A stretch of 63,040 nt of DNA, the filler included, from Reclinomonas americana ATCC 50394 (lineage: Eukaryota): NCBI GenBank assembly GCA_048213135.1. It is 14 parts of 14 records of this genome, joined end to end, with 100 filler letters (N's around TTAATTAATTAA, not from the genome) between each part and the next. Parts side by side here need not be neighbours in the genome. Positions count along the whole stretch, not along the records: positions 53,460 to 56,417 come from AFZH01022700.1; 13 more parts are not named here. The stretch is one strand, 5' to 3'. Positions 53,360 to 60,935 of the stretch are shown in pieces. A model generated the notes under the pieces. That model did not search any database and was not told where the DNA came from. It saw only the letters and a list, made by a program, of their open reading frames with translations. A program made the position numbers and the translations under genes. Positions within the stretch are counted from its first letter, which is position 1; every line of letters starts with the position of its first letter.

Positions 53360-53541
53360 NNNNNNNNNNNNNNNNNNNNNNNNNNNNNNNNNNNNNNNNN
53401 NNNTTAATTAATTAANNNNNNNNNNNNNNNNNNNNNNNNNNNNNNNNNNNNNNNNNNNNACACACACAAAAAAACAGAGTCTTGTTATTTAAGCAGAGCG
53501 GGATCTCCTCTCGCCAATCTTTTTCTTTTCTCCCTCCCCCT

Positions 53542-56226
53542 TTACACCACCAAGACGACATTGTTCGGCGGTGATTCCGGCCGCACTGCGATTTCCCGGA
53601 GCGACAAGTGGCGCACGGGGCAGCCACACTGGATGGCCACGTAGAGCGCCTGTACACCATTTGCGCCGACCGGATTCTCTGTGGCGCCGAAATAAATGAG
53701 GCACATACGAACGAGCAGGCGAGTGAATTCACCGCGTGCGCGCAACTCGACAGGCTCAGTTGTCGCAATTCGCGGTGTTGTACCAAGGACGCCGAGAAGG
53801 CGCAGGTCGCCACATCGTTCAGACCGCAGTCTGCAAGGCGGAGTGTGGATGAGAGAGAGAACACATACGACTTGCGAGGTGCGTGCGAGAGTGTGTACCT
53901 TCCAGGAGCAACACAGCGAGTCTTGGTGCCTGGTGCAGCACCATCTTCATTGCATCGGCAGTCTGGAGTGGATTACCTGGCGAACGAGAGACGGCTAGTG
54001 TGAGCGCACTGACAGAGACGGAAAAAACACGATGTCCGTTACTCACCGCTCACGTCGAGATACTCCAGAGCCTTACATGACACCGTCTGTGCGAATAGTG
54101 CGAGGCCAGCATTGGAGATACCATTGTCTGCACAGTGGCGTGGAGTGAGTCACACCACTCGCCACCCAGCACTGTGATTTCGCACGCAACTCGCGACATT
54201 CAAGTACGACAATGGCTGATGGCCGGCAAGTGCCACTGCCAGCACGTACATGCCAATGTCGGTCAGACCTGTGCCGGCAAGATCAAGTCGCGCCAGGTAT
54301 GGCGTCGCTTTCAACAGCGGCTGCACGAACTGCGCAATGTCGGTCCCCAGTGGATTTTCTGCACGCACAGACGCATGGTCAGATGCCAACAGGAAACGCA
54401 CACACACGCACAGCGCCGGAAATCACGCAACGAGCCAACGAAAGGTTCTCCAGCGGGCAAGCAGCGCCACTGAGCCCGGTGGCGAAATGTACAAGACCAG
54501 CCGCCGTCAAATCGTTCTGCGATAGGTCGAGCGATCGCAGAGTGCGATTGCACCGAATGGCCGTGGTGAGGTGCCGTAGACCGAGCTCGCCGATCTGATT
54601 GAAGGGAATGTACAACGACGACAGCGAGGTAGTGGTCAACAGCAATCGGCTCACAGCACGCCAGCCGGTGGGACCTGCTTCAGCATCTGTGGCGCAGCAA
54701 GTTGAGCACTCTGGCATTCACTCGCTCCAACACGACAGCGTCCGCAACTGCGTAAAAGCAGGCTCTGCACGCCCGGGTGCAACTGAACGGCGGCACACAG
54801 CGAGTGCACGCCGTCGTGTCCAATGGGACCGGCGACACGCACGGTCGACAGCCCGGAGTACATCAGGAGACGAGCGAAATCGGGAACCAGTCCGCCCTCA
54901 CAGATTTGCTCAAACGAGACCACACTCCTGCATACGTGCATGCGCATCAGTGGCACTGCTCTTGCTCACTGACTCTCTTTTCATCTTGCTCTCTGACACA
55001 CGCGTACCGCTCCAGCAGGTCACGGAACCACATGGACACGGCCCACAGGGTGCTCGCATCATCAAACGACAAGAAGGATCCCACGAGGCGCCACAGTGGG
55101 TCCGGTAACCTGGTCGACAGCTGCGGCCGCCCACGAGTTGACTCTGCTGCCCTCTGCGCACAGAAGAATGGGAGTGAGGCGTGGTGCACTTGAAGGTCAG
55201 GGAGCTCGTCCACTCGGCACGAACCGTGAGCATCAACGGGAACGCGGAAGACAGTGGTGGAACTGCGCGCAAGCAAAAACCACTGCAGTGAGTCGTTCTG
55301 CTCATACAAGACAGCAGGAAAAATTGAGGCACGCAACTCTCGCGGACGCGAGCGACTGCTTTCACGCTCGACGAGGCACGCGCTGGCGCACTGTCGGCTG
55401 ATGCGCGCGGCAGCGGTGGAGAAAAGGCGAGCTGCGCGGTGCCGGACGACTGCATCGACGCAGGAGTGCGGGGGCTTGCCGTTGGCGGTCGCGCGAGTCC
55501 ACCCACGGTGGTCGACGGCAACGCCGACGAGAATTTCATACCGGGCGACGGTCGGGTGGAGGTGGATCGCGACGCTGTCGGTGACATGAAACTCTGACCG
55601 AGCGACTTTTCCGCTCCTCCATCCTGCGATGAGTCAGTCAGTCAGTGCGTGTGCGAATGTGTGTGTGGCGGCGCTTCCTCCCCGAGGTCGACGAGCGCAC
55701 CGAAGAGTGATCGTCGTCGGCCGACAGATTCAGAGCCTCCACCGAGACACCGGCGAGCTTCAGCAACTCCATGTCGTCACCACGCTCCAGCCGCCTGCGC
55801 AGCGTGGAGTTCCACCGATTCTTCACCGCATTCGCCGTGCGCCCGTCCAACTCCTTGGCCATACTGCATGAGAAACGAAGTGTCAATAAAACACAGAAGA
55901 GAGAGACGCGCTGAAAGGAAACAACGCAACGCTGCCCAGCGATTGCCCATCGAGGCACGCATCCGCACAATTGCCGCGTCCTCCTCCACCGACCACTCGC
56001 CACGCTTCACTCCCGGATCCAACTGGTTGCACCAGCGCTCCCGAATCGACTTGCCCGAGCGGCCTTGACCCATGAGCTGCGCAATCACTGATGCCACGCC
56101 CCATGAACACACACACAGAAGACGAAGAGAGAGAGACAAAAGGCACAGTCGCTCACCCTTCCATCGCTTCGCGCCATGCGTGCTAACCAACGATCGCAGC
56201 AACTCATCGTCGGCCTCTGTCCACAT
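53542..56226 (-). CDS. R2R3-Myb + F-box + RNI-like LRR fusion protein
   Basis: In-frame spliced chain from MWTEADDELL..RERWCNQLDP..WSVEED..GNRWA..LDGRTANAVKNRWNS, through an S/P linker, to F-box RLPDPLWRLVGSFLSFDDASTLWAVSMWFRDL and about 8 LRRs (e.g. LRSLDLSQNDL, LARLDLAGTGL). Stop TAA at 53542. Confidence 0.85.
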
Positions 56227-56934
56227 GGTGTGCGCTGTGCAGCAATGACAGAGGGAAGGGAGTAAGGGAGAGAGTAGTGGTGAGTTGGAGACTGAGGGAG
56301 TGCTCACAGTCTGCATCTCTTCCTCTCCCTCTTACACATACTCTCTAACTCACCTCTTCTCTGTTCCTTCCTCCATTCTACATCCCGCTCCCTTCCCTCA
56401 GCATCTCTCTCTCTCTCNNNNNNNNNNNNNNNNNNNNNNNNNNNNNNNNNNNNNNNNNNNNTTAATTAATTAANNNNNNNNNNNNNNNNNNNNNNNNNNN
56501 NNNNNNNNNNNNNNNNNGAGAGTGTGAGTTTGCGCGGGAAATGCAGCACGTGCGGTGCATTTCGCAGGTGCGTGCATATCTCTCTCTTCTCTTGTGTGAG
56601 AGGCACAGACATGCATGCACAGGTGTGTCTGTCTGTCTGTGTAAGTGAGAGGGGGATAGAGTGACGCAACTGCGGTGACTCGCTGCGCGTCTGCCATGTC
56701 CTTTGGTGGCACTCGTGGACGCGCGCAGGCACAGACTCTGCTCTCACTCACTCGCTCACACACACTCTTTCACACAAACAGACACTGCAACGAAGCCACA
56801 CACGCCGACACAATCAACAATTAATCTTCCGCTTGATTGCTAACTAACTGACAATGGGACGTTTTTTGCTGATTGCACTACACTTCATGTTGGTTTTTTC
56901 TCTGTGCCTGCTCGTGCGTGACTTCTTATTGTTT

Positions 56935-58996
56935 TCAGCCACGTGGCATCCACAGCTTGACCAGACCATCCGCTGAGGCGCTGGCCAGCAACGGCTCACC
57001 CGGGTGGAAGTCGACCGAGTACACAATATCAGTGTGACCGTCGAGAGCTTGCAGGATGCGGCCGTGGCCCTGCAATGGAAGAAAGAGAAGAGATAATGAG
57101 TATGTCGGGGTTGCGCTGCTTGCTTGTTGCGTACCTGTCGTCCGCCAACGTCGTACACGTAGACTTTCTTGTTGGTGCTGCCTGAGGCCAGCAGCATGGT
57201 GCGGTTGAGATCGACGAGGAATGCACTGCGTTGCGAAGAAAAAAAAACACCGACAATCAGCACTGTGGCAGGAGCAGCACATCTAGCAGACCACTAACAC
57301 CAGACCTCTCGTCGTCGGCCGCCGAGGAACCGCCACCAGCTGCGCCATCGTCGTCTGTGGCGTCGGCACTGCCACTGCCGGTGAACTGTGAGCCGACAAA
57401 GAATGACGAGCGAATGGGCCAGTTGCGGCTCTTGGCGCCGTAGAACTCGTGCAGCAGTGAGATGCGCAGGCTGGCCTGCTTCTTCATGAGCGCACCGCGG
57501 TCAAACACGCGAGTGACATTGTCAAAACTGTTGACGGCCATGAACCGGCAATTGTCGCTCTGTGGAGGAGGAAGAGAGGAAAGCATGCACGTAAGTAGCT
57601 GCCTGCCATGCATGTCAACCGCCAGTTGCCAATAGTGTACCTCAGCTGTCGGACGCGACAGTGTCACACACGACACCGGTAGTCTCTGCTCGCCAATCTC
57701 CATGCTCTCCACAGCCTCACCCGTTCGCATGTCCCACGTCTTCAGAACGCCCCGCTGATCCGACGACAGAACCACCTGGCGACCCATGGCACACGAACTG
57801 CAAACATACAAGCGCGCCAATCAGCGTCGACCGCGGCGCGATGTCCGAGAGGAAACAACAGAAGAGTAACGCAACATGCACGTCACTGGGTCTTGGTTGA
57901 CAAGCCGTATCACCGGCTGCGCCGACGACAAGCGGTCGTCGTGGCCGTGAATGGTGCCACTTGTGTCACCGTACATGCACAAATGTGGACCTGTCGGAGA
58001 TGTGAATGAGAGAGAGAGAGAGCAAAGAGAAAGATGGCCCAGCTTCTCTCGCATTTTCTTGCTCTCCCTCTCTCCCTCCCCTTTTCTCTCTCCCTCTCCC
58101 ATCCCTTCCCCTCTCCCTTCCCCCTCCCTCCGGAGCAACGCACTGTGGTTGGTGGCCCACTGCACAGTCTGAATGAGTCCGGTGGCCTCCAATGCCGTGA
58201 CGCAGCGGCTCGTCGCCACGTCCCACAATCGAAGCGTGCGATCAAAGGAACCCGACAAGAGAGCGTTGCTGCACACAGACACAGCAAACATGAGCATTCG
58301 TCACTCCGTTTCCCCTCTCATCTGGCAGCGGTGTGTAACCTGTCGGGTGACCACGCCAGATCCGCCACATTGCTCGTGTGCTCAGCCAGGCACGAGATCT
58401 CCCGCGGCGCATCCGAATCGAAAGCCCACAACCGCACACTGCCATCAAACGAACCCGTGGCCAGCTGCTCACCATACGGACTGAACCGCACACAATACAC
58501 AGCTCCCGTGTGCCTGCCCAAACAAACACACAAACGCAGAGGTCAGCGCCAGTTGGCGTGGATTCAAGGATACTGCCAGCAGCAGCAGCAACAACAACAC
58601 ACCCACGCAAGTCCGCACGGAAGGAGAAGAGCGACGTGACCTCTGTCGATCGCTGCAGCGGGCGTAACCTGCTCCCCGTGCCGCGCGCATTCGACTGCGT
58701 CGGTTCCCCGCCCTCAAACGCCGACACGGGCGGCGACAGCACCGCAGTCGACGGCGTCACCGGCGTCGTCGCAATCGTCGGCGTGGTGGCCGCACTGCCA
58801 CTGCCACCGGCACCTGCCACTGGTGGCGCTCCGGCCTGCGGCACAAACACCACTGGCGTCGCCGGGTATCCATTCAGAATCGCCATCATGGGACTCACAG
58901 CTCCACTGGTGCCAAACGCCGCCGCCCCCTGTGCTGCAGCCGGCGTACCACTCCCAACAAACGAAGCCGGCGCACCTGTCTGCACGCGCAAAGGCT

Positions 58997-59031
<35 letters not shown>

Positions 59032-59457
59032 TGTTGCTGAGCCAGCTGCTGCGACAACTGCTGCAGCTGTTGCTGCTGGTCTGCTGCAGTCTCCTCTGCC
59101 GACTGCGGGTCCACAATGCTAAAGGGCGCCACGGCGGATTTGCCGCGCTGCTGCAGCACCTGGTTGAATCTGTGTGCAAAGAAACGACATTGATCATCAT
59201 CATCTCATCTGCTTACGTGCGAGTCTTTCTTTCTTCTCTCTTGTTACCTGACATTCAAGTCGTACAGACTCTTCTGCAACTGCTGCTTCTCGCGCTCCAG
59301 GCGCTCCACCTTGTTCTTCAGCTGCTTGTTCTCATTGTTGACTCGTTCAAATTCCTGCACAAAGTGAGCATCAGTGAGAGAGAGAGGGAGAGAGAGGGAG
59401 AGGGAGAGGCACAGGAAAGCGCACCTGCTTGTAGAAGGAGTCAGCAGAGTGATACAT
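56935..59457 (-). CDS. Coiled-coil / poly-Q / WD40-repeat protein
   Basis: ENKQLKNKVERLEREKQQLQKSLYDL; GHTGAVYCVRFSPYGEQLATGSFDGSVRLW; GHTDIVYSVDFHPGEPLLASASADGLVKLW. Confidence 0.92.
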
Positions 59458-59544
59458 TTCCCCTTCAGAGAGCCTTGGGGTTACAGTGAAGCGTCCAGCG
59501 CGGAAATTGCCTCGACACGTAACCCTCAATCACTCGCTCGAAGA

Positions 59545-60935
59545 ATGTTCGACGACGCTGATGCCGTGGCTTCTCCACCTCTTGCTCCAACAGAAGCACG
59601 CAGTGGCGGCGCGATGAGCAAGGGAAGAACGCAAGTTGCGTCTTTTTTCTTCCCGAACATGACACACAGATCGCTCTCTCTCTCGCTCGCTCTCTTGCGC
59701 CCGAGCGTGTGCGCCATCGCGCACTGTCTCACACTCCCCACTCTCCACACACGCACACACGAGTCATTGTGTGCAACATGCACATCGGATGTCTTAAAAC
59801 GCCTCTCACTCTCTATCTCTCTCACTGTCATTTCAGACACCCGCCGACGACCACGACCGCGTGTCGCTCTCCTCCTCCTCCACCGCCGCCTCCTCCTCAC
59901 TGCGACGCACAGCCGCCACCCAGCGAAGGAAAGAGGTGATTCTCGCCTCATGCGGGCCCTGTGGCACTCCAATGTCATTGTCCTGAATTCCCTCCTCTCT
60001 CTCTCTCTCGTGCGTAGGCATCGCCACCGCAGTCGCCCTCGCTGACGGTGACGTCACCGGCGGCGTCTGTGCGCTCGGATCCGGGTCCTGTGGCGGGCAA
60101 TGGCCATGCGCGACGTCGAACCGTCGTTCGTGTGGTCGATGATCCTTCTTCGTCGACGGCCGTGACGCCCAGTGGGACTCTGGCGGGTCGGCGACGCACT
60201 TCACTGCAGTTCTTGGCGGTACCGACGCGCGGATCGCCTTCGTCTGCGTCTGCATCGGAGGAGGACGGGGAGGGATCGTCGTCGATGGATCGCGATCGGA
60301 GGGAACGAGTGGAGAGGTTTTTGACACGGCGACGAGGTGCGTTCTGCTTTGCTCATGCGTACGTGCGTGCGTGGAGACTCATGCATGCGTGCGTGCAGTG
60401 AGTATTGTCAAGCACGACGACACGCCGATGTGGGTGCACGACACGTGAGTCACCACCAATCGATTTCTCCTCTCCCCTTCGCTTTCCGCTCACTCTTTCC
60501 CTTGTGCCTCGCAGCGAGTGGCAGCTGACGCCGATCCAGACGACCGTGGACGAGAATGGGGAGGTCAAGGTCGATGTGTCACCGCGACCGGCGCTGTCGA
60601 CGGCGATGCTGGAGGCCATGAATCGTCTGACGCCGCGTGGGATCTACACCAGTGTGTGTGGCTCGCAAAAGGGCGACGATGACGATCGCACCTCGCGTCG
60701 ATCAACGTCGAGTGCGCGCACGCGGTTGCGGCGGGCCGTGAAGCGCGACACTGGGCTGACGGCGTGGGAATCGCTTCGCATACTCAAGTATCACCGCACG
60801 GTGGGATTGCCGCAGAAACGCGAGCGACTCGACAAGCTGCAGCGTCTGTGGCACTGGCGTGACTCGAGAATACCGCAGCATCTGCGAGGCGACGGGATCG
60901 ACAAGCATGTGGCCAGTGTTATCTGTCGGCCATGA
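59545..60935 (+). CDS. Hypothetical 4-exon protein
   Basis: In-frame GT-AG exon chain ending ...VASVICRP*. Divergent from the WD40 gene. Confidence 0.6.

Follow-up and report, generated by a model that had tools for sequence, protein, structure and literature searches.

A gene of the eukaryote Reclinomonas americana ATCC 50394 (assembly GCA_048213135.1) very probably encodes, in one continuous chain, two Myb repeats of the R2R3 type, a degenerate F-box-like motif, and about ten leucine-rich repeats (LRRs) of the ribonuclease inhibitor (RI) type. Judged from the DNA of the locus, this combination of Myb, degenerate F-box and RI-type LRRs is probably a real gene, and it is apparently undescribed.

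The locus and its gene model

The assembly consists of 108 Mb in 16,441 contigs, and the window that we analyzed, 63,040 nt in all, is a set of contigs strung together with 100-nt spacers. These spacers are at 53360-53459, 56418-56517, and 11 other places, and each is made up of 44 N, TTAATTAATTAA, and 44 N. The gene lies on the minus strand of contig C7233 (window positions 53460 to 56417). In agreement with the first-pass annotation, which had described a phase-consistent, stop-free GT-AG chain linking Myb, linker, F-box region, and LRRs, we find a chain of 13 exons that runs from 56234 to a TAA at 53542, is interrupted by 12 introns of 62 to 80 nt, and encodes 615 residues (Table 1).

A second copy of the locus, together with its upstream neighbor gene, is present in the same assembly (L013, contig G000:C2960, 7,897 nt). 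We read it as probably the other haplotype because most of the genes of this genome that we searched came in such pairs. Contig C2960 spans the join at 56418-56517, and the two contigs placed side by side there are true neighbors. The same 13-exon frame is kept in the second copy from the Myb repeats to the last LRR, with an exon total of 1,850 nt in both copies. Twenty-two of the 26 exon differences between the copies are synonymous (P = 8e-8 against a transition expectation of 0.33), the introns (843 nt in total) contain 35 SNPs, and every indel is intronic.

Table 1. Features of the Myb-F-box-LRR gene (window positions unless L013, the second copy, is named)
Feature	Position	Strand	Content and comparison of the two copies
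E0, tentative first exon	56671..56697	-	ATG, 9 codons, phase-0 donor GTTGCG; in frame with E1 via a 169-nt intron (second copy)
Contig spacer	56418..56517	.	E1 of the second copy falls here
E1	L013 3134-2954	minus	181 nt, open; acidic tract then basic stretch; own ATG; coding-like score 0.25 bits/nt
E2	56157..56234	-	First half of Myb repeat R2, contains ATG 56226; 2/2 differences synonymous
E3	55931..56087	-	R2 recognition helix and first half of R3; PF00249, c-Myb family best PDB matches
E4	55701..55863	-	R3 recognition helix and start of linker; 3/3 differences synonymous
Intron 4	55624..55700	-	77 nt, putative Myb-to-linker join; in-frame TGA 55640-55638 among CTGAC branch-point repeats
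E5	55338..55623	-	S/T/P-rich linker; 4/6 differences synonymous, no indel in 286 nt; donor 55337 (rank 1/62)
E6	55225..55262	-	38-nt linker micro-exon; acceptor rank 3/43, donor rank 2/62; flanking introns with indels
E7	55008..55153	-	Degenerate F-box-like motif (~55120-55013); acceptor rank 1/43
E8-E14	53542..54927	-	About ten RI-type LRRs (26-29 residues) and stop; 11/12 differences synonymous
E8	54927-54749	minus
E9	54686-54432	minus
E10	54358-54191	minus
E11	54127-54047	minus
E12	53976-53899	minus
E13	53830-53747	minus
E14	53678-53542	minus

The start of the gene is probably farther upstream than 56226, where the first-pass annotation had placed it. In the second copy there is an open 181-nt exon of matching phase (E1), with a phase-1 donor compatible with the acceptor at 56235; ATG 56226 is therefore probably internal. 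Based on this reading of the second copy, the full protein is likely to have 685 residues if it includes E0, or 668 residues if translation begins at the ATG inside E1. E0 is tentative and is the weakest part of the gene model, because scores as high as 13.2 are reached by chance bridges of more than 200 nt that connect real tandem genes. A further in-frame intron of 57 nt (55506-55450) is possible inside E5.

The upstream neighbor (window 56935-59600; L013 3570-6600, minus strand) reads by eye as a WD40-repeat-like protein with an N-terminal coiled coil and poly-Q, and its stop is 237 nt ahead of E0. Two other observations concern splice signals and gene structure elsewhere in this genome. 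The usual splice donor is of the GTRAG type, unlike GTTGCG, which is the commonest donor in this genome: it is found in 8 of 19 fixed introns, and 52 occurrences were seen versus 11 expected (window 53542-56234, L027, and L033). At positions 4570-4960 of L033, three tandem and partly decayed units that resemble first exons lie between an aldehyde-dehydrogenase-like gene and an F-box-like/LRR gene.

The Myb domain and its probable junction with the downstream exons

The two Myb repeats match PF00249 with an E value of 4.6e-18 and 65.5 bits (cutoff, 24.4) over exons E2 and E3 with the intron read through, and E4 completes R3. The best single-stretch PDB matches are v-Myb, c-Myb, and B-Myb, and the R2R3 assignment made at first pass is thus confirmed; SNAPc4 tops one PDB ranking in which repeats are summed. 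We found no R1 repeat upstream, where E1 of the second copy is acidic and of low complexity and has no Pfam match. A tree built from 12 Myb rows gave no resolution. When the domain is aligned with 1H8A, using a correspondence of c-Myb residue numbers that is partly our assumption, K128, K182, and N183 are kept, as is R133, and C130 is replaced by Ile. Two tandem repeats, these four conserved residues, and a disordered S/T/P tail are features that the protein shares with the c-Myb and B-Myb R2R3 factors (PDB 1H8A, 1MSE, 1GV2, and 1A5J), from which it differs in the Ile at position 130 and in a tail that continues into the F-box-like motif and LRRs. According to the portion of the c-Myb study that we consulted, K128, K182, and N183 are the residues that read AACNG (PMC3240579). 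Since all three are kept, the Myb repeats are predicted to bind AACNG-type sites. The linker that follows, described at first pass as an S/T/P linker, consists to 36% of S, T, and P over 148 aa and has six S/T-P sites.

The critical question for the gene model is whether the Myb exons are joined to the exons downstream. The alternative is that there are two tandem genes, or that the transcript is mainly Myb only: a 222-residue Myb protein would end at TGA 55638, and a linker-F-box-LRR protein would start at ATG 55587. Both the in-frame stop and the downstream ATG are present. The mere existence of a chain across them is weak evidence for a join, because many splice paths and most shuffled sequences provide one: of 78,812 splice paths enumerated, 24,818 arrive in the F-box frame, and 2,499 of 4,000 shuffles (62%) permit some in-frame bridge across the TGA. 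The evidence rises above chance on two counts, namely, how good the splice sites are and how the second copy differs from the first.

For splice-site quality, we used profiles trained on 19 introns from outside the tested stretch, each of them fixed by continuity of the reading frame. The donors of the three joining introns rank 6, 1, and 2 of 62, and their acceptors rank 11, 3, and 1 of 43. The best-scoring of the 78,812 paths takes all three joining introns and ends in the F-box frame, with the proviso that the path score is a sum, which favors intron-richer paths, and that paths that stop early are not strictly comparable. The donor of intron 4, GTGCGC, had ranked 24 of 62 under a first training set of 12 introns, and its rank rose after the introns of two other genes were added, one of which has the same donor. 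GTGCGC is also a donor in the aldehyde-dehydrogenase-like gene, where the frame runs through, and it is not enriched in an unsupervised donor count in which GTTGCG and GTGCGT are enriched. One of the CTGAC repeats of intron 4 is 19 nt before the acceptor, which is the branch distance of most of the fixed introns; branch motif and acceptor are at normal spacing and in phase. A bridge as good as intron 4 occurs in only 41 of 4,000 shuffles (1%), and at three control junctions between tandem genes there is no good bridge of 55 to 95 nt (best score, -6.2); both results argue against separate genes. We rejected two alternative donors for this intron. The one at 55692 has a score of -4.8 (rank 61 of 62), and the one at 55767, third in rank, would require an intron of 144 nt, after which the frame stops near 55537.

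The stretch that spans the join has 8 differences between the copies; 6 are synonymous in the frame of the model (P = 0.019), compared with 1 and 0 in the other frames. The proportion for linker exon E5 alone is not significant (P = 0.097), and the coding score of micro-exon E6 is itself negative. Because no Met precedes the motif in the F-box frame, the F-box exon must be spliced to the linker exons. Two separate genes would also have to fit a 3' end and a promoter into the 50 nt between stop and ATG, an interval that contains none of four polyA-like hexamers. Two tandem pairs that we measured are 237 and 176 nt apart, and a third pair in this genome is possibly separated by only 46 nt.

The behavior of intron 4 itself counts against the join. 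It is the sole SNP-free intron of the 12, differing from the second copy by a single 3-nt in-frame deletion, and a retained coding tail could look alike; if it is retained, the product is the 222-residue Myb-only protein, which ends in a basic cluster. A second-order Markov composition test is neutral, failing to distinguish this intron from coding sequence. On balance, we consider two genes or a mainly Myb-only transcript improbable, and a single gene carrying Myb repeats, F-box-like motif, and LRRs very probable. The single fused gene of the first-pass annotation is therefore supported at the DNA level by the second-copy pattern, the splice-path rank, and the shuffles, while its start site and its number of LRRs have to be revised. 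A Myb-only isoform from the same gene is possible.

LRRs, the F-box-like motif, and Skp1

The LRR part matches PF13516 (LRR_6) with an E value of 1.8e-7, and its top PDB match is ribonuclease inhibitor; GALA proteins are also among its PDB matches. Approximately ten RI-type LRRs of ~28 residues occupy residues 385 to 660, rather than the eight or so first counted. Eight are recognized by pattern; those at residues 412 and 525 were read from the translation. Six LRR introns are phase 1 and fall at the same place in the repeat.

Directly preceding the LRRs is the motif that had been called an F-box in the first-pass annotation, which had named failure of the F-box HMM as a result that would count against that call. 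The motif has no Pfam match even at an E value of 10 (PF00646 and PF12937), and it is absent from both genome-wide lists of F-boxes (13 and 48 matches). Many F-boxes read LPxE; this motif reads LPDP. One interpretation, then, is that within a single gene the motif is a relic that caps the LRRs, and that the protein is a Myb factor with an LRR tail that binds a protein or ligand and has no link to Skp1. The motif also has no PDB-sequence match and no clear fold match (Foldseek, VIA). The AlphaFold model of the lone segment shows two helices, compared with the three of the F-box fold, at a pTM of 0.39; neither this model nor that of a paralog segment was informative.

The motif belongs to a small, genome-specific family with unusual Trp residues, which likewise favors a relic. 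Two other genes (four loci) carry it at 38 to 39% identity. These paralogs (L003/L004 on G000:C142 and C515; L005/L006 on C371 and C408) have an invariant Trp and the pattern W-x-V-S. In C142, the motif is internal and follows exons that look ankyrin-like by eye and have no Pfam match; in C371, LRR-like exons come after the motif. In 2 of 5 rows, one paralog has a weak F-box-like match (E value, 0.016), which speaks against the relic interpretation. When a profile of the motif family is compared with seven clear F-boxes of the genome, the hhalign probability is 45.6 and the E value is 2e-4. With a profile built from those seven F-boxes, the motif scores above all 1,908 of the 1,908 scored shuffles, yet it is fifth among 1,218 open reading frames of the window. 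The same profile, run on the best 150 of 12,496 LRR proteins, has as its top three hits proteins that are named F-box in UniRef. Under a broader local profile (12 rows, one of which is not an F-box stretch) the motif is weak, and 13 of 1,889 shuffles score as high. In the Atlas, three of three named rows are F-box clusters (0.81 to 0.89), and these are leads only. Within E7, the single difference between the two copies is just upstream of the motif, a further point against a relic.

Co-folding with Skp1 also argues against a relic, a check that had been proposed with the first-pass annotation. The 40-residue segment is predicted to dock on a stand-in Skp1 from another organism (P0020) with a score of 0.63, compared with 0.02 for the best control. 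Contact agreement among docking runs is at least 84%, partner pLDDT is at least 64, and the contacts are mainly with Skp1 residues 96 to 136, the C-terminal helices. Among solved pairs, 51 of 78 microbial and 71 of 105 eukaryotic ones attain the docking mark; among mismatched microbial pairs and unrelated eukaryotic pairs, 2 of 108 and 2 of 126, respectively, do so. Because Skp1-F-box complexes have been solved many times and are a textbook pair, a docking pass demonstrates likeness to an F-box and not binding. Of 57 C-terminal residues, the Skp1 of this genome shares 48 with the stand-in, and the 18 comparable interface residues are all identical; seven more interface residues are in exons left out of the comparison.

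Based on these predictions, we consider it likely that the motif binds Skp1, provided that this is one gene, and rather unlikely that it is a relic without a Skp1 link. The F-box claim is thus retained in altered form: the Pfam HMMs find no F-box, and the paralog matches, profile comparison, and predicted Skp1 docking are consistent with a degenerate one.

The Skp1 proteins of this genome have a peculiarity of their own. The main Skp1 (L027 419-506 and L035, minus strand) has Ala where P0001, P0010, and P0020 have Pro after NDF-T/S, and a second, divergent Skp1 (L029/L030) has Ala at the same position. We take that Pro to be the site that is hydroxylated in Dictyostelium.

Proposed function and comparison with known proteins

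No ortholog of the Myb + F-box + LRR gene was found by single-exon protein searches or in the metagenome parts scanned. Word-index searches with an LRR exon and with the Myb exons gave no match among longer proteins, which is a weak result, as even Myb relatives were missed. A HMMER search with the LRR exon gave 12,496 matches at an E value of 0.001, of which the best 150 are generic long LRR arrays. Among those 150 listed, the best alignment over the whole LRR region has ~29% identity, and none of the 150 matches the Myb part. A scan of 31 of 64 metagenome parts found 3 loci, all with LRR-only matches. In the R. americana genome, no contig has both one of the 85 Myb matches and one of the 21 matches to LRR_6, although a second case is still possible because neither list includes the present locus; none of 28 Myb-matching loci with ~1.5-kb flanks has an LRR match, and none of 4 extended, partly masked loci around the F-box-like paralogs has a Myb match. 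In titles and the beginnings of abstracts we found no Myb + F-box/LRR protein, although the supplementary tables of plant F-box surveys could list one; the parts of the main text of PMC5412402 that we consulted contain no Myb-F-box case. These results suggest that the Myb version is rare.

Parts of the design are known. F-box followed by RI-type LRRs is the arrangement of bdelloid rotifer proteins that are named "F-box domain-containing" in UniRef (P0157, P0140, and P0259), in which the F-box is N-terminal and no Myb match was found (none among the 150 LRR matches listed). DNA reader, F-box, and LRR are combined in FBXL19 and KDM2A/KDM2B. Like FBXL19 and the short forms of KDM2A/KDM2B, the R. 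americana protein has an N-terminal DNA-binding domain, a long linker, and an internal F-box (degenerate here) directly before C-terminal LRRs; SKP1 binding, which has been shown for FBXL19/KDM2, is predicted here as well. It differs in that its reader is an R2R3 Myb domain, predicted to be sequence-specific, whereas theirs is ZF-CxxC, which recognizes unmethylated CpG, plus PHD; in its ribonuclease-inhibitor-like LRRs; and in an F-box that is below the Pfam threshold. No exon scanned has a Pfam match to ZF-CxxC or PHD, and we saw no JmjC domain. The protein is thus not a member of the FBXL19/KDM2 family but may work like one; the likeness is of design, by analogy, and we claim no homology.

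Our leading, still tentative, interpretation of function is that this is one nuclear protein that holds Myb on DNA and the F-box on Skp1 while the LRRs present a neighboring protein to an SCF ligase for ubiquitination. A basic stretch before R2 would direct nuclear import, and the Myb repeats would hold the protein on AACNG-type sites. The linker would be flexible between Myb and F-box, the degenerate F-box would dock on Skp1, and the LRR horseshoe, as expected from its family, would capture a nearby protein on that DNA. The captured protein would then be presented to the SCF ligase and ubiquitinated, a scheme in which we infer the recruitment of Cul1, the substrate, the DNA target, and the splicing of intron 4. 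Of the two functions initially suggested, a DNA-tethered SCF adaptor is plausible, although it has precedents in FBXL19 and KDM2A/B, and nothing that we found supports a ligand-sensing transcription factor. Ubiquitination does not follow from the architecture, because FBXL19 purifications held SKP1 and no CUL1/RBX1. A more specific version is unlikely: a sequence-addressed SCF receptor, built independently, whose LRRs would pick a promoter-bound protein for destruction, and for which the product of retained intron 4 would be a Myb-only competitor.

Most Skp1-binding F-box proteins work in SCF complexes, which counts against a nonproteolytic role. Nevertheless, a single Skp1-bound protein whose F-box/Skp1/LRR end recruits a co-regulator complex would be compatible with the same one-gene and predicted docking evidence and with the degenerate state of the F-box, and we regard it as somewhat less probable than the SCF interpretation. 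Precedents would be the recruitment of CDK-Mediator by FBXL19 and of PRC1 by KDM2B. The FBXL19 study, as far as consulted, reports that SKP1 was bound, that CUL1/RBX1 were not detected, and that the F-box is needed to recruit CDK-Mediator, and, in its authors' description, FBXL19 acquired its DNA-binding domain to recruit proteins and not to ubiquitylate them (PMC5997449). The sections consulted of a review describe KDM2B as reaching a CUL1 ligase via its F-box and as needing its F-box and LRRs for Polycomb binding, and they credit both KDM2B and FBXL19 with ligase roles (PMC7000146). These precedents are animal proteins with a different DNA-binding domain, which weakens their bearing on recruitment by the R. 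americana protein.

The weight of this case is limited, as it is one gene in one unannotated genome with no ortholog found and with a sub-threshold F-box. If the SCF-type or recruiting architecture is as modeled, the combination of DNA reader, F-box, and LRR, which has been described as an acquisition of animal FBXL19/KDM2, evolved a second time, in this instance with a Myb domain that is sequence-specific. The gene would then provide a case within one chain for asking whether such proteins ubiquitinate chromatin targets or only recruit them; the papers on FBXL19 differ on this point.
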